Positions 3,062-24,300 of a stretch of 64,000 nucleotides of DNA are shown here, piece after piece. Positions within the stretch are counted from its first letter, which is position 1. The number at the start of each line of letters is the position of its first letter. The translations under genes were made by a program, and so were the position numbers. The notes beneath the pieces were generated by a model. It saw only the letters and a list, made by a program, of their open reading frames with translations. It ran no database searches and was not told the DNA's origin. This DNA is from an uncultured Eubacteriales bacterium. Its GTDB lineage: Bacteria > Bacillota > Clostridia > Oscillospirales > Oscillospiraceae. Location of the stretch: contig ONPF01000014.1 in NCBI GenBank assembly GCA_900319635.1, forward strand, positions 21,009 to 85,008, written 5' to 3'.

Positions 3062-4741
3062 TCAGATGGTGGTTTCGCTGTTTGCCAGATCCCCCAGCAG
3101 CTTCTCGCGCACCACGCCCACGCGGGTCTCCCGCACCTTCTGGCGCAGGGGCAGCACGCTGCGCGGAGAGACGGACAGCTCGTCCAGCCCGATGGAAAGG
3201 AAGAGCTCCGTCAGCTCCAGATCCGCGCCCAGCTCGCCGCAGATGCCGCACCAGATGCCGGCCTTGTGAGCATTGTCGCAGGCCATCTTGATGAGCCGCA
3301 GCACGGCGGGGTGATGAGCGTCGAAGAAGCGGCCGAGATCGTTGTTCTGCCGGTCGCAGGCCAGGGTGTACTGGGTCAGATCGTTGGTGCCAATGGAGAA
3401 GAAGTCCACCTCTTTGGCAAGCCGATCGCTGATCATGGCGGCGGCGGGGGTCTCGATCATGATGCCCACGTCCACCTCGTCGGAGAAGGGAATGCCCTCC
3501 TTGGTCAGCTCCGCCTTCACCTGCTCGCACATCTTCTTGGCCTCCCGCACTTCCCACACGGAGGCGACCATGGGGAACATGATGGAGAGGCGACCGTAGG
3601 CGGAGGCGCGGTACAGCGCGCGCAGCTGGGTGCGGAAAATCTCCGGCCGGTTCAGGCAGATGCGCAGCGCCCGGTTGCCCAGGGCGGGGTTCTCCTCGTG
3701 GGGCAGGTTGAAGTAGCCGATCATCTTATCCGCGCCGATGTCCAGCGTGCGGATGACGACCTCCTTGCCGCCCATGTCGGAGAGCACCTTCTTATAGGCC
3801 TCGAACTGGTACTCCTCGGTGGGGTAATCGTCGCAGTTGAGATACAAAAACTCGCTGCGGAAGAGGCCGATCCCGCCGCCGTCGTTCTCCAGTACCGCGT
3901 GCACGTCATCGGGGTTGCCGATGTTGCAGTAGACCCGCATGTTCTGCCCGTCCAGCGTGACGTTGGGCTGGCCCTTCAGCTGGTTGAGCAGCTCCTGGCG
4001 CTTGAGGATCTCCGCCCGCTTTTTCATGAGGCGCGCCCGGGTGTCCTCATCCGCGTCCAGCACCACAGTGCCGGTGCCGCCGTCCACGATGACCTCCCGC
4101 CCGGCGTAGTCTTCCTTCAGCTGCTCGCCCACGCCGATGATGGCGGGGATGCCCATGGTGCGGGCCAGAATGGCGGTATGGCTGGAGCCGGAGCCGCCGG
4201 AGGTGACAAAGCCCAGGATCTTGGACTTGTCCAGCTGCACCGTCTCGCTGGGCGCCAAATCGTCGGAGGCCAGGATCACGGGCACCTCGGAGTCGATACC
4301 ACCCTGCACCACGCCCATGAGGATACCCACGATGCGGCCGGAGATGTCCTTCACGTCAGCGGCGCGAGCCTTGAAATAATCGTCCTCCATGGCGGCAAAT
4401 GCGTCCGCCTGCATGGCGCCGGCGTCGGTGACGGCGGCCTCGGCGTTGAGCCCCTGCTCCTTGATGAAGCCCTCGATGGCCTCCTCATAGTCCAGATCCT
4501 CGCACATCATCTGGTGGGTCTCGAAGAGCATGGCGGCCTCGTCGCCGGCCTCGGCTCTGGCCTTCTCGGCCAGCACGCCCAGCTGCTCGATGGCCTTGGC
4601 CTGGGCCTCCTTGAAGCGTGCAAATTCCGCCTCCCGATCCTCTACCTCATAGCGTTTGAGGGTACCCTTGGCTCTCTGATAAAAATACAGGGGGCCGGCG
4701 GCAACGCCGGTGGAAACGCCCTTTCCCTGAATGGTGATCAT
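3062..4741 (-). CDS. ptsI: Phosphoenolpyruvate-protein phosphotransferase (PTS enzyme I)
   Basis: Full-length EI-like sequence (MITIQGKGVS.., GGSGSSHTAILARTMGIPA, IGTNDLTQY). The start is set at the ATG at 4741, preceded by AAGGAG. The 42 extra N-terminal codons in the ORF track run through a terminator hairpin and were discarded. Confidence 0.95.
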   Translation of the reverse strand: MITIQGKGVSTGVAAGPLYFYQRAKGTLKRYEVEDREAEFARFKEAQAKAIEQLGVLAEKARAEAGDEAAMLFETHQMMCEDLDYEEAIEGFIKEQGLNAEAAVTDAGAMQADAFAAMEDDYFKARAADVKDISGRIVGILMGVVQGGIDSEVPVILASDDLAPSETVQLDKSKILGFVTSGGSGSSHTAILARTMGIPAIIGVGEQLKEDYAGREVIVDGGTGTVVLDADEDTRARLMKKRAEILKRQELLNQLKGQPNVTLDGQNMRVYCNIGNPDDVHAVLENDGGGIGLFRSEFLYLNCDDYPTEEYQFEAYKKVLSDMGGKEVVIRTLDIGADKMIGYFNLPHEENPALGNRALRICLNRPEIFRTQLRALYRASAYGRLSIMFPMVASVWEVREAKKMCEQVKAELTKEGIPFSDEVDVGIMIETPAAAMISDRLAKEVDFFSIGTNDLTQYTLACDRQNNDLGRFFDAHHPAVLRLIKMACDNAHKAGIWCGICGELGADLELTELFLSIGLDELSVSPRSVLPLRQKVRETRVGVVREKLLGDLANSETTI

Positions 4742-4770
4742 AAGACAATTCTCCTTTTCATGATGAATAG

Positions 4771-4804
4771 AAAAATACGGCTGTCTCGGGGCAGCCGTAT
4801 TTTT
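4771..4804 (-). terminator. Intercistronic hairpin/terminator between ptsH and ptsI
   Basis: 13-bp stem aaaaatacggctg/cagccgtattttt with A and T runs on both sides. It lies 10 nt after the ptsH stop. Confidence 0.7.
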
Positions 4805-4814
4805 CTGTGTCTTT

Positions 4815-5075
4815 TTACAGGTTGGCCTTGAAGAAATTCTCCAGCGCAGTGGCGACGGCTTCCTCATTGCCGCCCTCGACCTCGATCTTGACGGTGTCGC
4901 CCTGCTTGATGCCCATCTGCATGAGCGCCATCAGCTTGAGCGCGTTGACCTTCTTCTCTCCCTTGGTGATGGTGACGGCGGAGCCGGCAAAGTTCTTGAT
5001 CTCCTTGACCAGCAGGCCGGCGGGACGGGCGTGGATGCCCACAGGATCGGTGATGGTGTACTCAAAAGTCTTCAT
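4815..5075 (-). CDS. ptsH: Phosphocarrier protein HPr
   Basis: 86 aa with a GIHARPA His15 motif and a GGAGG RBS. The position aligned to the regulatory Ser46 appears to be Lys. Confidence 0.9.
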   Translation of the reverse strand: MKTFEYTITDPVGIHARPAGLLVKEIKNFAGSAVTITKGEKKVNALKLMALMQMGIKQGDTVKIEVEGGNEEAVATALENFFKANL

Positions 5076-12899: not shown

Positions 12900-14114
12900 T
12901 TAAATCTGATAAGCCCACAGCGTCAGCGAGACGTAGAAAACCAGCATCCCGCCGAAGATCAGCGCCTGCTTCAGCCGGTGAGCGGTGAGCAGGCCCACAA
13001 ATTCCCGCACCGCCGCGTTGGGCCAGAAATACCACCTGGTGTCCGCCCCCATGCCCAGCGCCCGCATCTTCACCCGCCGGGCGCAAAGGCCGCCGCGAAA
13101 CACATGGTAGTTGGTGGTGGCAAAGGCCACCTTCCCTTCCGGATTGATCGCCCAGATCTTCTCCTTGGAGAACTTCATGTTCTCCATGGTATCCGTGGAG
13201 CGATCCTCCTCCACGATGCGCTCCTCCGGCACCCCCTGCTCCAGCAGGTAGCGCTTCATGGAGGCGCTCTCGGAGATGGGCTCGTCCGGCCCCCGGCCGC
13301 CGGAGGTCACAAAGATCAGATCCCTGCCGGTCTGCGCCTTCTGCTTCGCGGCAAAGTCCAGCGCCCGGTCGATCCTCCCCCGCAGCAGGGGCGAGGGCGT
13401 GCCGTCCTTGCGGATGCCGCAGCCCAGGATGATGAGGAAATCCTTATCCGGCTCCGGCTCATAGCGGGCGGCGATGCTGTCCGCCACGATGGCACCGATG
13501 AGCATGCATTCAAAATAGAGATAGACCGCGGCGAAGAGGTTTGCAAAGAGATCGTGGACCATGACCTCCTCCCGGCTGCCGGAGGCATAGCGGTCAAAGA
13601 AGAACAAAAACAGCACCCCGCCCACCAGCAGAAAAGAGAGGATGATCCCCAGCACGTTTACGAGCCGCTTCCCCTCGTGCCGGATCAGCGAGATATTGGA
13701 GACGCAGAGCGCCGCGGAGAAGCACAGCAGGAAGGGCGCGGACAGGAGGATATAGTTCTTGGCCGAACCCAGCAGAATGTGCAGAACCGACTCCAACCGA
13801 TACTCCAGCGGAAGGCGGATCAGCTGCACGGTGAGGTAGATCTGCATGATCAGCACCGACAGCAGGAACAGGGCAAAGCCCATGTAATAGATCGTGTTGT
13901 AGGAGTAGGGGTTATACTGCAGCTGCTTGAACCAGGCTGCCACCAGCTGGATCAGCGCCGCCAGCAGATAGACCGCGATCAGCACGCTGATGGGCACCGC
14001 GTATTGTTCCGCCCCGCCGTGGATCAGCAGGAACAGAATGACCCCGACGAAAAGCGCCTGGATCAGCAGGTTATAGAGCTTGGGCTTTTTGTTTCGGGTA
14101 TCGAATTTCAGCAA
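12900..14114 (-). CDS. Multi-pass membrane protein with C-terminal DUF218 (YdcF/SanA/ElyC-like) domain
   Basis: Hydrophobic N-terminal half, then FLIILGCGIRKDGTPSPLLRGRIDRAL..FVTSGG..SESASMKRYL. It overlaps the upstream gene by 7 nt. Confidence 0.75.
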   Translation of the reverse strand: MLKFDTRNKKPKLYNLLIQALFVGVILFLLIHGGAEQYAVPISVLIAVYLLAALIQLVAAWFKQLQYNPYSYNTIYYMGFALFLLSVLIMQIYLTVQLIRLPLEYRLESVLHILLGSAKNYILLSAPFLLCFSAALCVSNISLIRHEGKRLVNVLGIILSFLLVGGVLFLFFFDRYASGSREEVMVHDLFANLFAAVYLYFECMLIGAIVADSIAARYEPEPDKDFLIILGCGIRKDGTPSPLLRGRIDRALDFAAKQKAQTGRDLIFVTSGGRGPDEPISESASMKRYLLEQGVPEERIVEEDRSTDTMENMKFSKEKIWAINPEGKVAFATTNYHVFRGGLCARRVKMRALGMGADTRWYFWPNAAVREFVGLLTAHRLKQALIFGGMLVFYVSLTLWAYQI

Positions 14115-14980
14115 GGCTGTTCCTTTCTCACCTGGTCCAGAAAACGCCGGAGGCCCTCCGGCCCCTCGGCTGCGTCCTCCAGACCCGTGTCGCCCAGGGC
14201 GATCATCTTGTTCTTTCCGTGGTAGTCGCTCCCCGCCGTGACATAAAGCCCGTAGCGCTGGGCGAAGTCCAGCATCTCCCGGTTGAGCTTTCCCGTGAAG
14301 CCGGAATAGTAGGCCTCCACGCCCTGCAGCCCCCGCTCCATCAGCCAGCGGAGCCGCTGATCCATCTCCTCGCCCAGGATGAGCTGATCTCCGTCTCCGT
14401 AGGAGGGGTGCGCCAGCACCGGGATGCCTCCGGCGCCCAGGATGCCGGCGATGGCCTGCTCCGGGCGGAGAAAATCGCTGCGGATGTGGAGCTGGTTGAT
14501 ATACTCCTTGATGGCCTGCTCCTTCGAGCGGGCATAGCCGTACTTGACCATCAGGTTCCCGATATGGGGCTTGCCGGGGTTATCCTGGGCCATGAGCCAG
14601 CGCAGCTCCTCCTCGGGAAAAGAGACGCCGAAGCGCTCCCGCAGGAAATCCAGCCTGGCGCGCAGCTTCCGCATGCGCATCCCGTGGCCGGTCTCCACCA
14701 GCTGCCGGATGGACTCCGCCCGGGGATCGTAGCCGTAGCCCAGGATATGGTACTTCCCCTTTTCGTCCCGGCAGGAAAACTCCGCCCCCGGGAGGAAGGC
14801 GGGGTCCCCCTCCCGCAGCAGCTCCAGCATGGTCACGCAGCCCTTGATGGCGTCGTGATCGGTGAGGGCAAAGAGCTGGAGCCCGACCTCCTTGACCCGG
14901 TCCAGGAGCTGGGCCGGACTGTCGCTTCCGTCGGAAACGCTGCTGTGCATATGAAGATCGATCTTGTGCGGAATTCTCAT
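14108..14980 (-). CDS. PHP-domain metal-dependent phosphoesterase (TrpH/YciV-like)
   Basis: IDLHMHSSVSDGS, ALTDHD, AHP, SDYHG motifs; 290 aa. Confidence 0.85.
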   Translation of the reverse strand: MRIPHKIDLHMHSSVSDGSDSPAQLLDRVKEVGLQLFALTDHDAIKGCVTMLELLREGDPAFLPGAEFSCRDEKGKYHILGYGYDPRAESIRQLVETGHGMRMRKLRARLDFLRERFGVSFPEEELRWLMAQDNPGKPHIGNLMVKYGYARSKEQAIKEYINQLHIRSDFLRPEQAIAGILGAGGIPVLAHPSYGDGDQLILGEEMDQRLRWLMERGLQGVEAYYSGFTGKLNREMLDFAQRYGLYVTAGSDYHGKNKMIALGDTGLEDAAEGPEGLRRFLDQVRKEQPC

Positions 14981-14983
14981 CTG

Positions 14984-16540
14984 TTATCCCAATTTCTTCT
15001 TCAGCGTCAGAATATTCTGGCCGCCTCTGTATTCATAGCTCACGTCGTCCATGAGCTTTTTGGTCAAAAACACGCCCAGGCCGCCGATCTGCCGCTTCTC
15101 CGCAGGCAGCTTGGTATTGGGATCGGCCTTGGCCAGCGGATCGTAGGGGACGCCGTGATCCAGGAAGGTGATCGTCACGGTGACAGGCTCCTCGGAGACC
15201 TCCACACGGATCTTGGTCTTCCCCGTCTCCGGCGCGTAGGCATAGCTGGCGATGTTCACGAAGATCTCCTCCACCGCCACGCCGATCTGCATCTCCGCCC
15301 TGGCGGGGCAGTCCGCCGCCTCCAGATGCTCCTCCACAAAGGACTGCAGCTCCTGCAGATTCTCCGGCACGGCGTCCAGCTCCAGCTCATTGGCGTTGAA
15401 GAGCAGGGTGTCCGTCTCCGCCAGCAGCTCCAGCAGACTTGCTTTCCAATGCTCCACATCCGCCCGGCGCTCCGGATCCTCCAGTCCGTAACGGCGGATG
15501 GTGCGGCGGATCAGGCGGGTGTAGCCGACGATCCGCGCCTTATTCTCCACCTCGCGGATCTTGGTCTCGCTGCTGGTGCCCAGGTAGGCCGCCAGCGCCT
15601 TGTGGAAGAAGGTCGCGCCGATTTCATAATCGAAGCCCTGGAATTTTTTGATGACCTCGTGATCCCGCTCCGAGAAGCCGATAAAGGAGTTGTACATGCT
15701 GCCCAGCTCGAAGATCGGGTGCCCCACCGCCAGGGTGTCCATGTCGATGAGCAGCACCTCGTCGTTCTGGAGCTCCAGATTCCTGGTGTGGTAATCCCCA
15801 TGGATCATGTGATCGTCATGGGGAACCTCCCGGATCATGGCGAGCAGCTTCTCCCCCGCCTCCTCCGGCAGATAGTCCTTGGTAAAGTTCGCCCAATTCA
15901 GCGCCGTCTCCTTCATATCCGGCAGCTTTCCGGCGGGGACCAGGGTGCCGTGGATCTTCTTGAGCATGCCCACGAATTCCTTGACGCACCAGTCCATCTT
16001 CTCCGGCTCTCTGGCCAGGATCTTGGCGAAGGAGCGGGCGTTGAGCAGTTCAAACACCGAGCCGTAGCTGTCCCCCACCTTCACGACATCATAGGAGATG
16101 GCCGTGGGAATGCCCAGGATCAGCGCCATCTTTGCCATTTCCCGCTCGTGCTGAATATCCTGCAGCGCGTCGGCGTTCTTATAGACCTTCACCACGTTGT
16201 CCTGGTCGATGCGGTAGAGCTTGCCGTTGGCGCCGCGGCCGATCTCCTCGCAGCCCTCGATGGACACCACGCGGTAGGCCTTCTCCACGGTCATCATCTC
16301 GGTGAAGCCGGTCATGTCCAGGATCTCGTAGACCTCGGGGCTGACATTGACGATGCGCATGGCGGGGTTGGTTTTCCGAATGCGCAGCAGCACCCGCAGC
16401 CCGGCGCTGGAAATGTATTCCAGTTCAGCCGCGTCCAGCACGAGGGAAGTCTTGTCCCCCTGTTCTATCTGCTTCAAAACGCTCTGCTCCACGGCGGAGG
16501 CGTTGTTGGAATCAATTCTTCCGTTCAGCTTGATCGTCAT
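14984..16540 (-). CDS. Triple-domain fusion: STAS (anti-sigma antagonist) + APH/choline-kinase-like kinase + RsbW/SpoIIAB-like GHKL serine kinase
   Basis: aa 1-95: STAS with LEYISSAGLRVLL. aa ~100-370: IGRGANGKLY, VVKVYK, HGDYHTRN (HxDxxxxN), LIDMD. aa ~385-518: EEIFVNIASYA (N-box), DHGVPYDP, IGGLGVFL. Confidence 0.85.
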   Translation of the reverse strand: MTIKLNGRIDSNNASAVEQSVLKQIEQGDKTSLVLDAAELEYISSAGLRVLLRIRKTNPAMRIVNVSPEVYEILDMTGFTEMMTVEKAYRVVSIEGCEEIGRGANGKLYRIDQDNVVKVYKNADALQDIQHEREMAKMALILGIPTAISYDVVKVGDSYGSVFELLNARSFAKILAREPEKMDWCVKEFVGMLKKIHGTLVPAGKLPDMKETALNWANFTKDYLPEEAGEKLLAMIREVPHDDHMIHGDYHTRNLELQNDEVLLIDMDTLAVGHPIFELGSMYNSFIGFSERDHEVIKKFQGFDYEIGATFFHKALAAYLGTSSETKIREVENKARIVGYTRLIRRTIRRYGLEDPERRADVEHWKASLLELLAETDTLLFNANELELDAVPENLQELQSFVEEHLEAADCPARAEMQIGVAVEEIFVNIASYAYAPETGKTKIRVEVSEEPVTVTITFLDHGVPYDPLAKADPNTKLPAEKRQIGGLGVFLTKKLMDDVSYEYRGGQNILTLKKKLG

Positions 16541-18347
16541 TCTTGCTCATTCCCTTTCCCCGGTATTCCATGCACAGCATGGTAAGGTCGTCAAATTGTT
16601 CTGCGTCCTTCACAAAGTCGGTTACCGCCGCGCTCACATTCTGCAAAATGTGCGCCGGCGCGGCCTCCGGCTCCGTATTCAGGGCCCTCAGCATCCGCTC
16701 CATCCCGAACATCCGCTCCTCGGCATTTGTCGCCTCGGGCACCCCGTCGGTGTAGAGGAAAAGCTTCGCGCCGGGCTCCAGCGTCAGCTCATACTCCCGG
16801 TATTTTGCCGAATCCATGACGCCGATGACCAGGCCGTGCTTGTCCTTCAGCAGCTCGAAGCTGCCGTCCGGCCGCTTGAGTACCGGGTACTCGTGCCCGG
16901 CGTTGGCCGCCGTGAGACGGCCTGTGGAAATCTCCAGGATCCCCAGCCAGACGGTGACAAACATCTCCTCCTGGTTGTTGGAGCAGATGGCTTCGTTGGT
17001 TTTGGCCAGCGTCTCCGCCGCGGAGCGGCCCAGCATGGCGCAGCTCTGCAGGATGATCTTGCAGACCATCATGAAGAGCGCAGCGGGCACGCCCTTTCCG
17101 GACACATCCGCCATCACCAGGCAGAGATGATCCTCGTCGATGAGATAATAGTCGTAGAAATCGCCGCCCACTTCCCTGGCCGGATCCATGCTGGCATAGA
17201 GTTCAAATTCCTGCCTGTCCGGGAAGGGCGGGAAATCATGGGGCAGGAAGGCCGCCTGCAGCCGCGTCGCCAGGGCGAGCTCCGTGGTGATCCGCTCCCG
17301 CTCCGCGGTGATGGACTCCATCCGGCCCATGTACTGGTCAAGCTCTCTCGTCAGCTTGACCACATCCTCCGAGAGCTCTCCGATCTCGTTGCGGGATCGG
17401 ATCTCCCTCAGATTCTCCGCCACGCCCGCGCTGTCCTTGCTGCGCTCGTACAGGCGGATGCTGTTCTGGATCTTCTTCAGCGGACGCAGCACGAAAAGCG
17501 ACATCAGCCCCAGGCAGATCAGCGACAGGATCACCTGGAAGATCAGGGCCGAAAGGGTCTCTTGCCAGGTCTGCCTGTCAATATCCGCCCGCAGCTCCGA
17601 GAGGCTCGAGGTCAGACCGATGAGCACAGGACGCCCGTCGATCTCACACAGATAGGCGTAATAATCCACATAATCGCCGGCGTCGGCCAGATGGCTTGCC
17701 TTCCGGCAGGCGCTGCCCATGGCCTCATGCTGGCTCTCCCCCAGATCCCGCACCACATGGCCGAGGGGGTAGACCTCCTCATAATCCGTTCCCCGCACGG
17801 CGCCTGGATCCGCGGCGCTGAAGAGGAAGAACTGGGTATCATAGGGCTCCCCGGTCACCACGCAGAAGAGATAGTCCACCTTGTGGGTCTGCTTGATGGT
17901 ATCGACGCGGGTGATCAGCCAGGAGTAACAGATCTCGGCATAGAGCTTCTGATCCTCCTCCGAGAGGGCCTCGATCTGCTCCTCTTCCATGTATCGCAGC
18001 TGAAGTCCCGGGTTCCGCCGGTGTAAGCTGCGGTACTTTGCCTCGGTCTCCGTCTCGCCGCTGAAATCCACGTCGTATTCCACATCCATGCTGTCCCAGT
18101 GCTCAAGCCAATAGCGCAGAAGCCACCGGTAACCCGGATACTCCCGCACGGCAAGGGAAACCTCGTTGGCGATTTCCGCAGAATGATTCTCCGCCTGCTG
18201 CTTGACGCTCTGATTGGCACGCAGGTGCTGGGTCACAAAGGTGATGATCCCCGACGCCACAATGGCGAGGGCAAACAGGATCGCGACCTGCAGGATGATG
18301 CTGCCTTTTCTTTTCTCCCCGCTCATGTCCGAAAACCTCTTCTGCAC
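16512..18347 (-). CDS. Membrane sensor PP2C phosphatase (TM - extracytoplasmic domain - TM - HAMP-like - SpoIIE/RsbU-type PP2C)
   Basis: Two hydrophobic segments flank a domain of about 220 aa. C-terminal motifs: REVGGDFYDY, VMADVSGKGVPAALFM, LYTDGVPEA, DDLTMLC. Confidence 0.9.
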   Translation of the reverse strand: MQKRFSDMSGEKRKGSIILQVAILFALAIVASGIITFVTQHLRANQSVKQQAENHSAEIANEVSLAVREYPGYRWLLRYWLEHWDSMDVEYDVDFSGETETEAKYRSLHRRNPGLQLRYMEEEQIEALSEEDQKLYAEICYSWLITRVDTIKQTHKVDYLFCVVTGEPYDTQFFLFSAADPGAVRGTDYEEVYPLGHVVRDLGESQHEAMGSACRKASHLADAGDYVDYYAYLCEIDGRPVLIGLTSSLSELRADIDRQTWQETLSALIFQVILSLICLGLMSLFVLRPLKKIQNSIRLYERSKDSAGVAENLREIRSRNEIGELSEDVVKLTRELDQYMGRMESITAERERITTELALATRLQAAFLPHDFPPFPDRQEFELYASMDPAREVGGDFYDYYLIDEDHLCLVMADVSGKGVPAALFMMVCKIILQSCAMLGRSAAETLAKTNEAICSNNQEEMFVTVWLGILEISTGRLTAANAGHEYPVLKRPDGSFELLKDKHGLVIGVMDSAKYREYELTLEPGAKLFLYTDGVPEATNAEERMFGMERMLRALNTEPEAAPAHILQNVSAAVTDFVKDAEQFDDLTMLCMEYRGKGMSKNDDQAERKN

Positions 18348-18383: not shown

Positions 18384-18683
18384 TTATTCGATATTCAGAA
18401 TATCGCAGAAGCCGGTCACTTCAAAGATCTCCTTGACTGTCTCGTTCACATGGACGAGCTTCATCTCGCCCTGCCGATTCATGATCTTCTGGGCGGCGAG
18501 CAGTACGCGCAGTCCGGCGGAGGAGATATACTCCAGCCGCTCAAAATCCAGGGTCAGCGCCTTCACATCTGCAAGGGATCCCTGCAATTCCTTCTCCAGC
18601 TGCGGCGCCGTGACCGTGTCCAGCCGTCCCTCCAGCGCCAGGCAGAGCTCTTCCTTTTCCTTCGTTTTGTTGATGGTCAGCAT
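18384..18683 (-). CDS. Anti-sigma-factor antagonist (single-domain STAS protein, 99 aa)
   Basis: MLTINKT..LEGRLDTVTAPQLEKEL..LEYISSAGLRVLL. The ATG at 18683 is preceded by GGAGG. Only the last 99 codons of track ORF 18384..19094 are used. Confidence 0.9.
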   Translation of the reverse strand: MLTINKTKEKEELCLALEGRLDTVTAPQLEKELQGSLADVKALTLDFERLEYISSAGLRVLLAAQKIMNRQGEMKLVHVNETVKEIFEVTGFCDILNIE

Positions 18684-18834: not shown

Positions 18835-18863
18835 ATTATAACGCAGCAATGGGAAAATGTCAG
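18835..18863 (-). promoter_or_regulatory. Sigma-A-type promoter for the partner-switching operon
   Basis: Minus strand CTGACA-17nt-TATAAT. It predicts a leader of about 145 nt. Confidence 0.5.
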
Positions 18864-19092
18864 CAAAAAATCGTGTCTCTTCCGACATTTTTTTGATCCC
18901 CCGCCGCCCCGGAAAGCTCCTGTTCCTTTGCGCGCTGCTCCGGGCGCTTCGCACCCCGGGCTTTGCCCCGGCGTTTGGCAGCTTCTCTTTCCCCGCATTG
19001 GGGATTGCCAGTCCGGGACCACAGGAGTAGAATAGGGAAAAATGCGCGCCTCCCATATGCGGATGCCGGGAAGGCGCGAAGGAGGCATTTGC

Positions 19093-19674
19093 ATGCATAT
19101 CTGTGTTTACGGAGCGTCCGGGAGTCAACTGGATCGGGCATATTTCGACGCAGCCCGCGCTCTCGGGCGGCTGCTGGCCGGGAGCGGGCATACGCTGGTC
19201 TTCGGCGGCGGCGCCGGCGGGCTGATGGGCGCCTGCGCCGAGGGCGCCGCCGAAAGAAACGGCGACATTTACGGCATCGCCCCGCGCTTTTTCGACGAGC
19301 CGGGCATCCTCTTCCCCCGCTGCAGTCGCTTTCTCTTCACGGAGACCATGGCGGAGCGGAAGAGCGCCATGGAGGAGGCCAGCGAGGCCTTCATTGCCCT
19401 GCCCGGCGGCATCGGCACCTTTGAGGAGTTTTTCGAGACCCTGACCCTCAAGCAGCTGGGGCGGCACGGAAAGCCCATAGCGCTGCTGAACACTCTGGAC
19501 TACTACGCGCCTCTGGTGGACATGCTGGAGCGGGCGGCGGAGGGCGGCTTTCTCAGCCGAAGCTGTCTGGAGCTTTTCGCTCTCTGCGCCACACCGGAGG
19601 AGGCGCTGCGGCATGTTTGTACCGCCCCGGAGCGCACCGGCAGCATCCGGAGGCTCACGGATTACAACAAATAG
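19093..19674 (+). CDS. LOG-family (TIGR00730-type) nucleotide phosphoribohydrolase
   Basis: VYGAS.., GGGAGGLMG, PGGIGTFEE motifs. The ATG at 19093 lies 7 nt after GGAGG. Confidence 0.85.
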   Translation: MHICVYGASGSQLDRAYFDAARALGRLLAGSGHTLVFGGGAGGLMGACAEGAAERNGDIYGIAPRFFDEPGILFPRCSRFLFTETMAERKSAMEEASEAFIALPGGIGTFEEFFETLTLKQLGRHGKPIALLNTLDYYAPLVDMLERAAEGGFLSRSCLELFALCATPEEALRHVCTAPERTGSIRRLTDYNK

Positions 19675-20012: not shown

Positions 20013-22037
20013 ATGAATACATTAGGATGGAAAATACCCTATACGCGGCCGGAATACCCGGCTGCTCTGAAACAGGCGGGCTTCGGGCCGCTTCTTTCTG
20101 CTGTCCTCGCCCTGCGCGGGATCCGGACGGCGGAGGCGGCGCAGGCCCTGCTGGAGAGCGGGATCGACTGTCTGCATGACCCCATGCGGATGCAGGGCAT
20201 GCCCGCCGCGGTGGAGCGCATCCGCCGGGCCATCGGGCAGAAGGAGGCCGTCGCCGTCTACGGAGACTATGACGTGGACGGCATCACCGCCACCTGTCTG
20301 CTCACGGACTACCTGCGGGGAAAGGGGCTGCGCTGTGTCGGCTATATCCCCGACCGAAACGAGGAGGGCTACGGGCTCAACTGCGCCGCGCTGGACAGTC
20401 TGCGCGCCGACGGCGTGACATTGCTCATTACGGTAGACTGCGGCATCACCGCGGTGGAAGAGGCGGAGTACACCAAGCGCATCGGCATGGACATGATCGT
20501 CACCGATCACCACGAGTGCAAGCCCGGCGCCCTGCCGGACGCGCTGGCCGTCATCGACTGCAAGCAGGAGGGCAACCGCTATCCCAACCCGGATCTCTGC
20601 GGCGTGGGCGTGGCGCTGAAGCTGGTCTGCGCCTGCGAGGGGAATGCCGCCGCCATGCTGGAGCGCTATGCGGATCTGGTGGCCGTGGGCACGGTTGCGG
20701 ACGTGATGCCCCTGGTGGGGGAAAACCGCTTTCTGGTGCGGCAGGGGCTGGAAAAGCTGGTGCACAATCCCCGTCCCGGCTTTGCCGCCATGCTGCGGGA
20801 GGCCGGGGTGGATCCGGAACGGATCACCGCCTCCAGCATCGGCTTCAGTCTGGCGCCCCGCCTGAACGCCGCGGGCCGTCTGGGGCAGGCCACCCGGGCA
20901 GCGGAGCTGCTGATGGCCACCGAGCCCGACAAGGCCGCCGCCCTGGCCGCCGAGCTCTGCGAACTGAACCGCCAGCGGCAGAGCATCGAGACCGAGATCT
21001 GGAAGGACGCTCTGCATCAATTGGAGGGTCGTCATCCCGACGAGCCCATCGTCCTGGCCAGCGATCGCTGGCACCAGGGGGTCATCGGCATCGCCGCCTC
21101 CCGCCTGGCGGAGCAGTTTTCGCTGCCCGCCATCATGGTCTGTCTCAACGGCGACCACGGCAAGGGCTCCTGCCGCAGCTACGGCGGCTTTAATCTCTTT
21201 GAGGCGCTCTCCGCCTGCTCCCGGCATCTGCTGGGCTTCGGCGGGCACGCGCTGGCCGCCGGCATGACCATCAGCCGCGACAAGCTCAATGATTTTCGCG
21301 CGGCTCTCGCCGCGTATTATCGCGCCAACCGCCCCAAGCCGGTGCCGGATGTGAACTGCGACCTGCTGATCCGGGATCCCTCTCTGCTCACGCTGGAGAA
21401 CGTGCGGGAGCTGGATCGGCTGGAGCCCTTCGGCAACGCCAATCCCAAGCCCGTGTTCTGCTTCAGCGACGCGCTGCTGGAATCCGCCGACCAGGTGGGC
21501 GGCGGCAGGCATCTGAAGGTGCGCGTCAGCCTCGGCGGGGCGCGGCTGGACGGGATCTTCTTTTCCCACAGCGCCCAGGCGCTGGGCGTTGCGGCGGGCG
21601 ATCGGGTGGATCTGGCCTTTACCCCCCAGATCAATGAATTCCGCGGACACGCCAGCGTACAGCTGGTGATCTCCGCCCTGCGCCGCCACGACGGTACTGC
21701 GCTCTGCCGCAAGATTTTGGCGGGCGAGGGCAATACCGCTTATGCCGCCGCGGCCTTCTGTCCCCAGCGGGCGGACTTCGTGCGCATCTGGCGCGGCGCC
21801 GGCGGGAGGCTCTCTCTGCCGGAGGACGCGGAGGGCATTCTCTCCCTCTGCCCCAAGGACATGGAGCCGGAGCGCTTCTGCCTTTGCCTGATGATCCTGC
21901 AGGAGGCGGGACTGCTGCACAGCGCGGACGGGCGCATCTTCGGCGCCTGCTGCTGTGCCACCGAGGGGAAGGCGGATCTGAACGCCACGCCCCTCATGCA
22001 GAGCCTCCAGCTGGAGCTGGAGGGAGACCACAGCTGA
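20013..22037 (+). CDS. recJ: Single-stranded-DNA-specific exonuclease RecJ
   Basis: DHH motifs (VYGDYDVDGITA, ITVDCG, VTDHH), a DHHA1 region (GGHALAAG) and typical length. Confidence 0.9.
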   Translation: MNTLGWKIPYTRPEYPAALKQAGFGPLLSAVLALRGIRTAEAAQALLESGIDCLHDPMRMQGMPAAVERIRRAIGQKEAVAVYGDYDVDGITATCLLTDYLRGKGLRCVGYIPDRNEEGYGLNCAALDSLRADGVTLLITVDCGITAVEEAEYTKRIGMDMIVTDHHECKPGALPDALAVIDCKQEGNRYPNPDLCGVGVALKLVCACEGNAAAMLERYADLVAVGTVADVMPLVGENRFLVRQGLEKLVHNPRPGFAAMLREAGVDPERITASSIGFSLAPRLNAAGRLGQATRAAELLMATEPDKAAALAAELCELNRQRQSIETEIWKDALHQLEGRHPDEPIVLASDRWHQGVIGIAASRLAEQFSLPAIMVCLNGDHGKGSCRSYGGFNLFEALSACSRHLLGFGGHALAAGMTISRDKLNDFRAALAAYYRANRPKPVPDVNCDLLIRDPSLLTLENVRELDRLEPFGNANPKPVFCFSDALLESADQVGGGRHLKVRVSLGGARLDGIFFSHSAQALGVAAGDRVDLAFTPQINEFRGHASVQLVISALRRHDGTALCRKILAGEGNTAYAAAAFCPQRADFVRIWRGAGGRLSLPEDAEGILSLCPKDMEPERFCLCLMILQEAGLLHSADGRIFGACCCATEGKADLNATPLMQSLQLELEGDHS

Positions 22038-22062: not shown

Positions 22063-24300
22063 ATGAACGAAACGCCGAAAAAAGAGAATATCCCGCTGGA
22101 TCCGGACAAGCTCTACGCGGCGCTGGAGGAGAAGATCAAGAACTCCGGCCACCCCATGGATTTGGGACGCATCCGCGCGGCCTATGAGATGGCAAAGCTT
22201 GCCCACGCCGGGCAGCTGCGCAAGGACGGCTGCTCCCCCTATGTGACCCACTGTGTGGCCGCGGCGGACATCTCCGTGGATCTGGGTCTGGACGAGGATT
22301 CCATCTGCGCGGCGCTGCTGCACGACGTGATCGAGGACACCCCCCTCACCCACGCGGACATCGCCCACCAGTTCGGCGCACCGGTGGCGGACATTGTGGA
22401 GGGCGTCACCAAGCTCACCCGGGTGCAGTACACCAGCAAGGAAGACGAGCAGATGGAGAACCTGCGCAAGATGCTCATGGCCATGGCCAAGGACATCCGC
22501 GTGATCCTCATCAAGATCGCCGATAGGCTCCACAACATGCGCACCATGGACTACCAGACGCCGGAGAAGCAGCGCACCAAGTCGCTGGAGACCATGGAGA
22601 TCTACGCCCCCATCGCCCACCGCCTGGGCATGCAGCAGGCCAAGTGGGAGCTGGAGGATCTGTCGCTGCGCTATCTGGATCCCACCGGCTACCGGGAGAT
22701 CACCGAAGCCCTGAACGCCCGCATGCCGGAGCTGGAGGCCTTCATGTCCTCTGTGGAGGAGAAGATCCAGACCCGCCTCAAGAGCGAGGGGATCAAGGCC
22801 TCCATCTTCTCCCGCATCAAGCATGTCTACAGCATCTACCGGAAGATGTACGCCCAGAAGCTGGACATCAACGGCATTTTCGACCTCTGCGCCTTCCGGG
22901 TCATCGTGGACTCCCTGCCCGACTGCTATAACGTTCTGGGCGTCATTCACGATATGTTCAAGCCCGTGCCCGGGCGCTTCAAGGACTATATCTCCACCCC
23001 CAAGCCCAACATGTACCAGAGCCTGCACACCACCGTCATCGGCACGGAGGGCATCCCCTTTGAGGTGCAGATCCGCACCTGGGAGATGCACCACACCGCC
23101 GAATACGGCATCGCCGCCCACTGGAAGTACAAGATGGACGGCAGCAGCAGCGTGGTCAGGGACGGGGATGAGGAGAAATTCGCCTGGGTGCGCCGCCTGC
23201 TGGAGGATCAGCAGGAGTCCGACGCCCAGGACTTCTTCCACGATCTGAAGATCGATATGTTCGCCGACGAGGTCTTCGTCTTCTCCCCCAAGGGGGACGT
23301 CATTAACCTGCCCGCCGGCGCCACGCCCATCGACTTTGCCTACAGCATCCACTCGGATGTGGGCAACCACATGGTGGGCGCCAAGGTCAACGGCCGCATC
23401 GTGACCTTTGACTATGTGCTGCAAAACGGCGACATTGTGGAGATCCGCACCTCCAAATCCTCCCCCGGCCCCAGCCGGGACTGGCTGAGCATCGTCAAAA
23501 GCGGCTCCGCCCGCACCAAGATCAAGCAGTGGTACAAGAAGGAGCGGCGGGAGGAGAACGTACTCCGGGGTCTGGAGATGCTGGAGGACGAGCTCAAGCA
23601 CAACGAGCTGAGCCTGGAGGACGTGCAGGGCGAGGAGATCATGACGCCGGTGCTCAAGCGTCTCAGCTACGCCACGCCCGAGGACATGTACGCCGCCATC
23701 GGCTACGGCGGCGTCACCGCCGCCCGGGTGGCCAACCGCCTGCGGGACGAACAGAAGAGCGCCATGGCGGAAAAGAAGTCCGTGCTGGATCGGGTCTCCG
23801 CCGCCGCCGAACGGCGGGAGGAGCGTGCCAAAAAAGAGGGCAAGGCTGTCCACGGCATCCTGGTGGAGGGGCTGGACAACTGTCTGGTCAAATTCTCCCG
23901 CTGCTGCACCCCCGTGCCGGGGGACGAGATCATCGGCTTCATCACCCGGGGCCAGGGCGTTTCCATCCACCGGAAGGACTGCGAAAATTATCTGCGCCGC
24001 ACCCGGGATCAGGTGGACGCCGGCCGCTGGATCCATGTCTCCTGGGCCAGTCAGATCACCGACAGCTATGTGACCATCCTCACCATCGCTGCCAAGGATC
24101 GCTCGGGCCTGGTCATGGATATTGCCACGGTGCTGAACTCGCTGAACGCCAAGGTGCGCAATCTCTCCGCCCGGGATAACGCCGGGCTTGCGCTGGTGAA
24201 CATCTCGCTGGAGGTCAGGAGCACCGCCGAGCTGCGGCAGATCATGAACCGGCTCGCGTCTGTTCCCAGCGTCACCGAGGTATCGCGCAGCGGGAAATAG
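22063..24300 (+). CDS. relA: Bifunctional (p)ppGpp synthetase/hydrolase, RelA/SpoT family
   Basis: HD domain (HDVIEDT), synthetase motifs (YQSLHTTV, EVQIRT), plus TGS and ACT regions; 745 aa. Confidence 0.95.
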   Translation: MNETPKKENIPLDPDKLYAALEEKIKNSGHPMDLGRIRAAYEMAKLAHAGQLRKDGCSPYVTHCVAAADISVDLGLDEDSICAALLHDVIEDTPLTHADIAHQFGAPVADIVEGVTKLTRVQYTSKEDEQMENLRKMLMAMAKDIRVILIKIADRLHNMRTMDYQTPEKQRTKSLETMEIYAPIAHRLGMQQAKWELEDLSLRYLDPTGYREITEALNARMPELEAFMSSVEEKIQTRLKSEGIKASIFSRIKHVYSIYRKMYAQKLDINGIFDLCAFRVIVDSLPDCYNVLGVIHDMFKPVPGRFKDYISTPKPNMYQSLHTTVIGTEGIPFEVQIRTWEMHHTAEYGIAAHWKYKMDGSSSVVRDGDEEKFAWVRRLLEDQQESDAQDFFHDLKIDMFADEVFVFSPKGDVINLPAGATPIDFAYSIHSDVGNHMVGAKVNGRIVTFDYVLQNGDIVEIRTSKSSPGPSRDWLSIVKSGSARTKIKQWYKKERREENVLRGLEMLEDELKHNELSLEDVQGEEIMTPVLKRLSYATPEDMYAAIGYGGVTAARVANRLRDEQKSAMAEKKSVLDRVSAAAERREERAKKEGKAVHGILVEGLDNCLVKFSRCCTPVPGDEIIGFITRGQGVSIHRKDCENYLRRTRDQVDAGRWIHVSWASQITDSYVTILTIAAKDRSGLVMDIATVLNSLNAKVRNLSARDNAGLALVNISLEVRSTAELRQIMNRLASVPSVTEVSRSGK

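Follow-up and report, generated by a model that had tools for sequence, protein, structure and literature searches.

Within the window (the whole 64-kb stretch of DNA analyzed here), five genes on the minus strand encode a free-standing STAS protein, a membrane phosphatase, a multidomain fusion protein, a PHP-family phosphoesterase and a DUF218 protein. The genes are packed as in an operon, with overlaps or 3-nt gaps between them. A consensus scan alone yielded a sigma-70-like promoter candidate at 18835..18863 (minus strand; CTGACA-17-TATAAT, 11/12 matches), ~150 nt ahead of the free STAS gene; the operon probably starts at this site. The free STAS gene (18384..18683, minus strand) encodes a single-domain protein of 99 aa (STAS, 1e-16; TIGR00377, 5e-21) that carries the motif LEYISSAGLRVLL. 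The next gene (16512..18347, minus strand) encodes a 611-aa membrane sensor phosphatase (SpoIIE, 4e-52), for which hydropathy predicts two transmembrane segments (approximately aa 15-40 and 263-290) and, between them, an extracytoplasmic region of ~225 aa; a linker then leads to the SpoIIE/PP2C domain (aa 404-595; nt 16563..17138). The last 29 nt of the phosphatase gene are shared with the fusion gene. The PHP gene (14108..14980, minus strand; 290 aa) starts 3 nt past the stop codon of the fusion gene, and its last 7 nt are shared with the start of the DUF218 gene (12900..14114, minus strand; 404 aa), with which the operon therefore probably ends. In related loci, DUF218 is a frequent but inconstant neighbor, represented in 13/78 loci in one set and 6/20 in another. 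No second copies (paralogs) of the module components were found elsewhere in the 64-kb window. An anti-phage defense system was considered and rejected, given that none of the five operon proteins matched a PADLOC model at E<=1e-3.

The fusion protein (518 aa) is encoded by an ORF at 14984..16540 (minus strand) that begins with ATG, has no earlier in-frame start, and shows a GC3 of 0.85, as in the real genes of the window. Profile searches delineate, in this order, a STAS domain (residues 2-87, 5e-15), an APH/ChoK-fold kinase domain (PF01636, residues 98-301, 1.7e-13; 51.4 bits, with the cut-off at 23.2) and an RsbW-type GHKL kinase domain (HATPase_c_2, PF13581, residues 390-515, 6e-25). All three Pfam matches exceed the gathering cut-offs, confirming the claim of the sequence-only reading of this DNA that the three domains belong to one polypeptide. 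Every motif named in that reading was located in the translation: LEYISSAGLRVLL at residues 40-52 in the STAS domain; IGRGANGKLY at 100-109, VVKVYK at 116-121, HGDYHTRN at 247-254 and LIDMD at 264-268 in the kinase domain; and EEIFVNIASYA at 424-434, DHGVPYDP at 461-468 and GGLGVFL at 486-492 in the GHKL domain.

In most relatives, the GHKL domain resides in another gene, which would fit an assembly or frameshift artefact joining separate STAS-APH and RsbW-like genes, the outcome that had been named in advance as fatal to the proposal. This explanation was checked and is refuted, its residual probability being negligible. The identical protein is present on several contigs that were assembled independently from different samples, and the gene order is also the same in independent assemblies. 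All three domains lie in a continuous ORF in every one of the best 120 clusters of homologs (lengths of 511-529 aa, identities of 73-99%) and in at least 78 species genomes, and the linker and the GHKL region are conserved in frame. Altogether, the three-domain architecture is represented in more than 100 sequence clusters.

The fused STAS domain (aa 1-90; 16271..16540, minus strand) and the free STAS protein both exceed the Pfam STAS and TIGR00377 cut-offs. The two are 39% identical overall, and the 13-residue identity between them, pointed out earlier, is exact. The corresponding DNA is identical at 30 of the 39 nt, with all 9 differences synonymous, so that the shared stretch reflects selection on a family-wide motif; these differences, together with the conservation of the motif across the family, rule out recent duplication or gene conversion as its cause. 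Among ~145 clusters at 50% identity, Y42, S44, S45, G47, L48 and R49 are near-invariant, and position 45 is Ser in 141/144 cluster representatives. Ser45 (codon 16406..16408), the candidate phospho-acceptor, aligns with Ser58 of SpoIIAA. The fused STAS domain lacks ~13 N-terminal residues that are present in the free protein, presumably the first beta-strand, and its junction with the kinase N-lobe is short and highly conserved (K87, A88, Y89, R90, S93, G96, C97, E98).

The kinase domain (aa 96-385; 15386..16255, minus strand) belongs to the APH/ChoK superfamily (PF01636), as indicated by its profile score, bilobal fold and catalytic set. The kinase fold postulated for the middle domain was borne out by an AF2 model (pLDDT 88.8; pTM 0.83, a value that speaks only to the confidence of the predicted domain packing) and by a Foldseek search of the PDB, where the best 50 matches were all APH-fold small-molecule kinases (E 5e-9 to 4e-7; target-normalized TM-score 0.38-0.59). 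The completeness of the catalytic set, also claimed from the letters, is upheld across the family: the Gly-rich loop (G101, G103), the beta3 Lys (K118), the alphaC Glu (E132), the HxDxxxxN catalytic loop (H247, D249, N254; 15779..15802) and the metal-binding D266 (15743..15745) are near-invariant, with the residues from K118 onward each conserved in at least 93% of ~145 cluster representatives (K118, 142/144; E132, 135/144; H247 and D249, 144/147 each; N254, 143/147; D266, 143/145). Several of the catalytic residues are invariant in A1 and A3. The C-terminal helical lobe includes an Arg-rich helix (R342, R345, R346, R349, R350).

The bilobal fold and each of these catalytic elements are shared with APH(2''), the MTR kinase MtnK, choline kinase and hygromycin kinase. 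The identity to characterized APH/ChoK kinases is only 10-18%, however, with the closest solved structure at E ~3e-6 by profile, and the N-terminal STAS fusion is unique to the STAS-APH family. Among curated families, TIGR02172 (Fibrobacter APH-like paralogous family) comes nearest, but the match reaches only 107.1 of the 228.2 bits required; membership was therefore rejected, the domain being related to this family but not part of it. A literature search found no descriptions of the STAS-APH family or of TIGR02172. The best 50 Foldseek matches include the APH(2''), APH(3'), APH(4), APH(9), capreomycin and corramycin phosphotransferases and the amicoumacin kinase AmiN, along with MTR kinase and a ChoK-family protein, and the best PDB sequence match is hygromycin-B kinase. 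These similarities might suggest a resistance kinase, one of the phosphotransferases for aminoglycosides or peptide antibiotics, that has incidentally come under the control of a STAS module. We consider this very unlikely, given that the low identity to such enzymes is accompanied by sequence E-values of 1e-6 to 1e-2. Furthermore, the family retains 57-80% identity across many families of gut Clostridia, and the gene sits in a signaling operon linked to nucleotide-type phosphohydrolases, both unlike mobile resistance genes.

The GHKL domain of the fusion (aa 386-518; 14987..15385, minus strand) is of the RsbW/SpoIIAB Ser-kinase type and contains the N box (E425/N429), the G1 box (D461-x-G463) and the G2 box (G486-G-L-G489); of 61 three-domain homologs, at least 95% retain each of these box residues. 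Membership in the RsbW, SpoIIAB or SpoIIAA equivalogs was rejected, all matches being far below the cut-offs.

The three-in-one fusion on which the sequence-only reading centered proved not to be the essence of the system. The core of the family is a STAS-APH protein of ~390 aa, represented by 808 clusters at 50% identity (E<1e-30), and the GHKL domain is absent from most of the best 150 clusters in the STAS-APH search; in most relatives, the orthologous GHKL domain is part of the PP2C protein or free-standing. The family is found in at least 596 species genomes of gut and rumen Clostridia, and its loci include some from relatives of Christensenella, Mogibacterium and Solobacterium. In 5/6 annotated two-domain loci, the neighboring gene encodes a sensor-SpoIIE-HATPase_c_2 protein. 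The GHKL domain of the fusion is 55-57% identical to the C-terminal GHKL domain of these PP2C-GHKL proteins and, judging from this similarity, is its ortholog. The PP2C of the window is itself 41-49% identical to the PP2C-GHKL proteins, yet stops short of their GHKL domain. Comparison of the loci thus indicates that the GHKL domain moves between genes, residing at the PP2C C-terminus (or free-standing) in most relatives and at the C-terminus of STAS-APH here; this relocation is the only difference of the window module from most relatives. A separate permutation, GHKL-STAS-APH (P0126), was also found. In a neighbor-joining tree, which is too crude for counting fusion events, all forms with a C-terminal GHKL domain fall within one subclade, interleaved with unfused and PHP-fused forms.

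The module carries a single GHKL domain: a second one was found nearby in 0/20 three-domain loci, whereas a separate GHKL was found near the gene in 25/53 two-domain loci. Neighbors were counted by targeted tblastn in place of unsupervised clustering of neighboring ORFs, in which the long antisense shadow ORFs of these high-GC genomes interfered and single linkage merged the STAS and GHKL families. Because in most relatives the GHKL domain is located in a separate protein, regulation must work in trans, and hence the intramolecular docking of STAS and GHKL that had been suggested to gate the kinase cannot be obligatory.

In textbook cases, partner-switching modules regulate sigma factors. The module in the window resembles the Bacillus subtilis systems RsbU/RsbP-RsbV-RsbW-sigmaB and SpoIIE-SpoIIAA-SpoIIAB-sigmaF in three respects: a STAS domain has Ser at the same position (S45, equivalent to S58 of SpoIIAA), the HATPase_c_2 Ser kinase carries N, G1 and G2 boxes, and a PP2C of the SpoIIE family is encoded next to it. 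Unlike these systems, it has no linked sigma factor gene in the window and includes a second, free STAS protein, whereas the other STAS domain is fused to an APH-fold kinase, with the GHKL domain on the same polypeptide. Pfam annotation of 11 distinct loci, over ~6-7 kb around the gene, called no member of the Sigma70 family. The free STAS protein is found alongside the gene in most related loci, and a SpoIIE-type PP2C is adjacent in many.

The module could still represent a classical anti-sigma switch, in which the fused GHKL domain is the anti-sigma factor for a sigma factor encoded elsewhere, the STAS domains antagonize it, and the APH-like domain, instead of being the output, serves as an accessory sensor or as a scaffold. 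STAS, PP2C and GHKL indeed constitute the canonical trio, there are weak NCBIfam matches to the RsbW, SpoIIAB and RsbA models, and proteins of the family are named 'anti-sigma factor antagonist' in databases. However, the RsbW and SpoIIAB equivalog matches are far below the cut-offs, no sigma gene was called in the 11 annotated loci, and the invariant feature of the family is the STAS-APH fusion rather than sigma linkage. In addition, the strong purifying selection on the catalytic set of the APH-like domain would be needless in a scaffold. This explanation accordingly appears improbable, and the database label is probably misleading.

The best explanation, to which we assign a probability of roughly 0.6, is that of a partner-switching module without a sigma factor, whose output is the STAS-fused APH/ChoK-fold kinase, most likely a small-molecule kinase. 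Given that the free STAS protein and the SpoIIE-type PP2C travel with the gene, an enzyme-output switch with two STAS substrates is the most economical reading, and what the family appears to control is an enzyme, not a sigma factor. Of the earlier proposal of a partner switch with a kinase output, the switch itself is favored by the lack of a called sigma gene in the 11 loci and by the linkage to STAS and PP2C, but the fusion with GHKL is not shared by most relatives.

A nucleotide-type phosphohydrolase is directly adjacent to the gene in ~40-70% of the loci, depending on the set, and absent in ~30-60%. This linkage had not been mentioned in the sequence-only reading. The three-domain forms are associated with PHP, which is directly downstream in approximately 28-34 of the 69 genome loci and in 10/14 metagenome loci, whereas the two-domain forms are associated with an HD_4 small-alarmone-hydrolase-like gene, directly upstream in 28 of the 46 cases. 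Both associations also occur as fusions: PHP is fused to STAS-APH in 9 clusters (the PHP part of one of these proteins, P0128, is 57% identical to the PHP protein of the window), and an HD_4-STAS-APH fusion exists as well. In the STAS-APH-PHP fusion loci examined, neither PP2C nor GHKL was found nearby, and the Ser of the STAS domain is lost in 2/9 of these fusions, so that STAS phosphorylation is not universal in the family. The PHP protein of the window is closest to the 3',5'-nucleoside bisphosphate phosphatase/RNase AM type and also matches PhnPP-type models, and the HD_4 partners match the RelA/SpoT hydrolase domain. The PHP protein and the APH-like kinase are probably functional partners, and the linkage to PHP or HD_4 is the best clue to the substrate class of the kinase.

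APH-fold enzymes also include protein kinases, such as YihE/SrkA and CotS/YtaA, and the kinase domain shows weak sequence matches to CotS, Bud32, YihE and YtaA, so that the substrate may instead be a protein. Under this alternative, which we regard as unlikely, the domain would phosphorylate a protein, possibly the STAS domain, and the adjacent PHP, Y_phosphatase3 or HAD proteins would be the matching protein phosphatases. Genes for Y_phosphatase3 are located upstream in two loci (L012 and L028), and the PHP family includes the CpsB/YwqE protein-tyrosine phosphatases. Conversely, the best 50 structural neighbors are all small-molecule kinases, no CpsB-type model was among the matches of the window PHP protein, the HD_4 partners match the RelA/SpoT hydrolase domain, and the module already includes, once, a dedicated STAS kinase, the GHKL domain.

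For the preferred reading, a switch with a small-molecule kinase as its output, we infer the following mechanism. An extracytoplasmic cue would cause the membrane PP2C of the SpoIIE family to dephosphorylate Ser45 of the fused STAS domain and the equivalent Ser of the free STAS protein, and the RsbW-type GHKL domain would re-phosphorylate them. The STAS domain is predicted to be rigidly attached to the kinase N-lobe, beside the Gly-rich loop, and its phosphorylation state would set the activity of the kinase and also decide whether GHKL binds STAS. The GHKL kinase and PP2C probably have a second substrate or partner in the free STAS protein; the two STAS domains would compete for the same kinase-phosphatase pair, with the free protein acting as a buffer or as a second output. 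In the window, the location of GHKL at the C-terminus of STAS-APH would tether this kinase to its own substrate. The product of the APH-fold kinase is probably a phosphorylated small molecule that would be removed by the co-transcribed PHP phosphoesterase or, in the two-domain relatives, by the HD_4 hydrolase.

To our knowledge, only a handful of partner switches control anything besides sigma factors. One of these is HsbR-HsbA of Pseudomonas, where a bifunctional PP2C and RsbW-like regulator is paired with a STAS protein and the output does not involve a sigma factor. The two-domain relatives of the window protein resemble this arrangement, as they adjoin a sensor-SpoIIE-HATPase_c_2 protein, with the phosphatase and the kinase on one chain and no sigma factor. 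A comparable regulator, SypE of Vibrio fischeri, is described as acting on the STAS protein SypA with a non-sigma output (PMC10120452). Relative to both pairs, the GHKL domain in the window has moved from the phosphatase onto the substrate, and the output of the STAS switch is an enzyme on the same chain, in place of a free STAS protein binding to a target. A precedent for uniting an RsbW-type kinase with its STAS substrate in a single polypeptide is Rv1364c of Mycobacterium tuberculosis, a PAS-PP2C-GHKL-STAS protein with phosphorylation-dependent interdomain switching (PMC9138534). Unlike Rv1364c, which includes PP2C and regulates sigmaF, the module in the window has PP2C as a separate membrane protein and no linked sigma factor, and its domain order is STAS-APH-GHKL, with an additional catalytic kinase domain inserted between STAS and GHKL.

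A more specific possibility, which we put forward tentatively and hold to be rather unlikely, is that the STAS-gated kinase and the adjacent or fused phosphohydrolase (PHP or HD_4) form a synthase/hydrolase pair for an unrecognized nucleotide-like signal in gut Clostridia, the level of which would be set by PP2C, GHKL and the free STAS protein. A purine nucleotide phosphorylated at the ribose 3' or 2' position is one example of such a signal. If so, this would be a new second-messenger pathway under the control of STAS Ser phosphorylation.

Regardless of the substrate, this is a large, unstudied family in which a STAS switch is covalently joined to an APH-fold kinase with an intact catalytic set, while the cognate RsbW-type kinase is shuffled and may reside on the phosphatase, in a gene of its own or on the substrate. 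Should the model prove correct, the family would offer a tractable partner switch over metabolite phosphorylation, possibly over a new signaling nucleotide, and a natural experiment on how a switch is rewired by tethering a kinase to its substrate.

The minus-strand ORF at 14984..16540 (hereafter, the fusion) encodes a 518-aa protein that starts with ATG and has no in-frame start further upstream; its codon-position GC profile (GC3 0.85) matches that of real genes of the ~61% GC window. Pfam profile searches identified a STAS domain (residues 2-87, 5e-15), an APH domain (PF01636; residues 98-301, 1.7e-13) and a HATPase_c_2 domain (residues 390-515, 6e-25), all over the curated cut-offs. Thus, the sequence-only reading of a STAS domain, an APH-like kinase and an RsbW-type GHKL kinase in one ORF was confirmed, and all the motifs it quoted are present at the positions it gave. 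The 788-aa ORF 14219..16585 (+), antisense to the fusion, was rejected as a non-coding shadow ORF with an inverted GC profile (GC1 0.85, GC3 0.62). Long antisense shadow ORFs are common in this high-GC3 genome.

An assembly artefact or a frameshift joining separate genes, one of the conditions under which the proposal was to be abandoned, is contradicted by the identical protein and the same gene order on contigs that were assembled independently, from separate samples, and by the best 120 homologous clusters, all of which contain the three Pfam domains (511-529 aa, 73-99% identical). With one genome scanned for each GTDB species, at least 596 proved to contain a relative. Among the genome loci, the best 80 all carry the GHKL-containing form (56-80% identity), with 78 complete three-domain genes and two clipped by a contig end. 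Almost all come from MAGs of the ruminant gut, under the labels Oscillospiraceae, Ruminococcaceae, Lachnospiraceae, Mogibacterium/Anaerovoracaceae, Solobacterium/Erysipelotrichaceae or Christensenella.

The fusion belongs to a set of minus-strand genes with operon-like packing. Downstream of a promoter-like site (18863..18835, minus strand, 11/12 consensus match) are the genes for a free STAS protein (18683..18384); a 611-aa membrane PP2C phosphatase (18347..16512; SpoIIE domain, 4e-52) with two predicted transmembrane segments around ~225 extracytoplasmic residues; the fusion (16540..14984), with its start 29 nt inside the PP2C gene; a PHP phosphoesterase (14980..14108), beginning 3 nt past the fusion stop; and a DUF218 protein (14114..12900), which shares 7 nt with the PHP gene. 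None of the five operon proteins matched PADLOC defence models, and no second copy of any module component was found within the 64-kb window. The divergent upstream neighbours on the plus strand encode a LOG/SLOG-family protein (Lysine_decarbox/LDcluster4; 19042..19674), RecJ (20013..22037) and a bifunctional RelA/SpoT (p)ppGpp synthetase/hydrolase (22063..24300). The RelA/SpoT adjacency is not conserved at other loci and is probably coincidental.

Several other neighbours were observed at the loci of relatives (L-numbers). An SDF-family (sodium:dicarboxylate symporter) transporter of ~535-550 aa with a ~130-aa N-terminal extension recurs beside the free STAS or the module in two- and three-domain loci (L005 6325-7971, L063 2900-4507, L087 8507-10144, L088 1931-3529, L115, L141 and L147). 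A ~215-aa helical protein with weak apolipoprotein/YtxH-like matches is encoded directly downstream of the three-domain gene, replacing PHP, in L040 (9935-10624), L053 (9946-10584) and ~11 others labelled Mogibacterium, Anaerovoracaceae or Clostridiales. Y_phosphatase3-family phosphatases are encoded directly upstream of three-domain genes in L012 (719-1921) and L028 (5320-6492), and a PNP_UDP_1 nucleoside phosphorylase downstream in L012 (3523-4299). An ORF with MatE transporter and HATPase_c_2 matches beside the three-domain gene in L016 (6200-7954) is possibly an ORF-calling artefact.

The stretch LEYISSAGLRVLL is common to the fused STAS and the free STAS 18384..18683 (-), and the 13-residue identity reported earlier is exact; over the whole length, identity is 39%, and the ~13 residues at the start of the free protein have no counterpart in the fused STAS. 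In a phmmer alignment, S45 of the fusion pairs with the phospho-acceptor Ser58 of SpoIIAA. The identity could be taken to reflect a special relationship between the two copies. However, the DNA coding for this stretch differs at 9 of 39 positions, all synonymously, and Y42, S44, S45, G47, L48 and R49 are near-invariant family-wide (~145 representatives of 50%-identity clusters), so that the identity is no sign of such a relationship.

The middle domain adopts a kinase fold, as had been proposed from its motifs. An AF2 model from a 121-sequence alignment (mean pLDDT 88.8, pTM 0.83) was compared with the PDB using Foldseek, and all 50 best matches are APH-fold small-molecule kinases (E 5e-9 to 4e-7; target-normalised TM-score 0.38-0.59; 10-18% identity), including APH(2''), APH(3'), APH(4), APH(9), capreomycin, corramycin and amicoumacin kinases, 5-methylthioribose kinase and a choline/ethanolamine-kinase-family protein. 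The catalytic residues are properly aligned, and the set is almost invariant across the ~145 representatives: the same residue is found at G101 in 134/144, G103 in 143/145, K118 in 142/144, E132 in 135/144, H247 and D249 each in 144/147, N254 in 143/147 and D266 in 143/145. Among solved structures, even the best sequence-profile matches are distant (hygromycin kinase, 3e-6; YihE, 2e-4; then YtaA, ChoK and NahK), which makes the APH-like domain a distinct subfamily. The nearest curated family is TIGR02172, matched at 1e-30, under its cut-off; a full-text literature search found no description of the STAS-APH family or TIGR02172.

When representatives of 1.84 billion 50%-identity clusters were searched exhaustively with HMMER, 17,369 matched at E<=1e-3, and 808 of these also passed E<=1e-30. 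The best 150 are mostly proteins of ~380-400 aa consisting of STAS and the APH-like kinase alone, and only a few clusters have a C-terminal GHKL, which indicates that STAS-APH is the conserved unit and the three-domain protein a derived form. Other fusions were also observed among the cluster representatives: Na+/H+ exchanger-STAS-APH (P0219), STAS-APH-PolyA_pol head (nucleotidyltransferase; P0249), HD-CE-STAS-APH (P0229) and STAS-APH-YezG-like (P0157).

Among six annotated two-domain (STAS-APH) loci, five adjoin a sensor-SpoIIE-HATPase_c_2 gene, which joins PP2C and an RsbW-like kinase in one chain, four contain a free STAS, and three have a small HD_4 gene directly upstream. With the C-terminal GHKL of these PP2C-GHKL proteins, the GHKL of the fusion shares 55-57% identity; the window PP2C shares 41-49% identity with their phosphatase part and stops where their GHKL starts. 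The GHKL domain has thus been relocated from the phosphatase onto the STAS-APH protein. In a survey of 80 metagenome loci, a second GHKL was found near none of 20 three-domain genes, and a separate GHKL, either PP2C-fused or stand-alone after a free STAS, near 25 of 53 two-domain genes. One protein has the circularly different order GHKL-STAS-APH (P0126). A rough NJ tree places all C-terminal-GHKL forms in one subclade, interleaved with genuine two-domain and STAS-APH-PHP forms. Evidently, domain shuffling is frequent in this family.

Judged against RsbV/W/U-type modules, the window components show every defining feature but one: a search of the gene neighbourhoods located no sequestered sigma factor, and no sigma factor gene was called in 11 distinct annotated loci, the window included. 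The module is therefore described as working like a partner switch, without being classed among anti-sigma systems. A precedent for joining the kinase and STAS in a single polypeptide is M. tuberculosis Rv1364c (PMC9138534), but it contains PP2C and regulates sigmaF, whereas in the window PP2C is a separate gene and the locus has no sigma factor gene. SypE/SypA-type systems provide a precedent for bifunctional PP2C+GHKL regulators with non-sigma output (PMC10120452); their arrangement corresponds to that of the two-domain relatives rather than the window.

The best reading remains the one proposed from sequence alone, a partner switch whose output is an enzyme. Upon an extracytoplasmic cue, the membrane PP2C would dephosphorylate Ser45 of the fused STAS as well as the free STAS, and the GHKL domain would re-phosphorylate both, with the free STAS competing for the same kinase and phosphatase. 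The fused kinase would be controlled by the STAS phospho-state and, as in SpoIIAA/SpoIIAB, by the binding of unphosphorylated STAS to the GHKL domain. The junction between STAS and the kinase N-lobe is short, with R90 and C97 invariant and their neighbours near-invariant. Intramolecular gating is not supported as an obligatory feature: because the GHKL is on another polypeptide in most relatives, control in trans must be possible, and the mechanism cannot be founded on the three-domain fusion. The fusion would tether the GHKL kinase to its substrate and may alter kinetics.

The sequence-only reading recognized the fusion but missed its family-wide context and the linkage to phosphohydrolases. 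The window PHP resembles 3',5'-nucleoside bisphosphate phosphatase (NF041577, 3.5e-33; PDB 2yb1), RNase AM/RNM-type enzymes (PDB 7ug9) and a Bifidobacterium PHP phosphoesterase (PDB 3e0f, 2e-31), with all NCBIfam matches under equivalog cut-offs. PHP lies directly downstream of three-domain genes in ~40-70% of loci depending on the set (L003-L082, L093-L172), namely, ~28-34 of 69 genome loci and 10 of 14 metagenome loci; its place is taken by HD_4 in three genome loci (L026, L032, L033) and by a Cof-type HAD in one (L077). Two-domain genes almost never have PHP (1/45); 28 of 46 have directly upstream, often overlapping, a gene for HD_4 (RelA/SpoT-hydrolase-like; TIGR00691, 1.5e-24), a ~190-aa protein similar to 'small alarmone hydrolase' (L083 3878-4447, L087 6424-7011, L090 5402-6004; also L093-L172). 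STAS-APH-PHP fusions form nine distinct 90%-identity clusters (P0128, P0405-P0412), two of which have lost the phospho-Ser (N or G instead); the PHP part of P0128 is 57% identical to the window PHP. HD_4-STAS-APH (P0248) is found as well, alongside the HD-CE and PolyA_pol-head fusions.

We read this linkage and these fusions as evidence that the kinase substrate is a small phosphorylatable molecule from which the linked hydrolase removes the phosphate; in the window, the PHP enzyme would reverse the reaction of the fused kinase. From the hydrolase types, we infer that the substrates might be nucleotide-like. That the STAS-gated kinase/hydrolase pair makes and breaks a new nucleotide-like signal is a speculative extension that we consider rather unlikely. 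At L085, a fusion of STAS with a Cof-type HAD-IIB phosphatase (3784-4866; also in L094 and L140) shares its operon with a free STAS, a single PP2C-GHKL and a STAS-APH kinase. Several enzymes that carry a STAS tag, among them a kinase and a phosphatase that oppose each other, may thus be under the control of one kinase/phosphatase pair.
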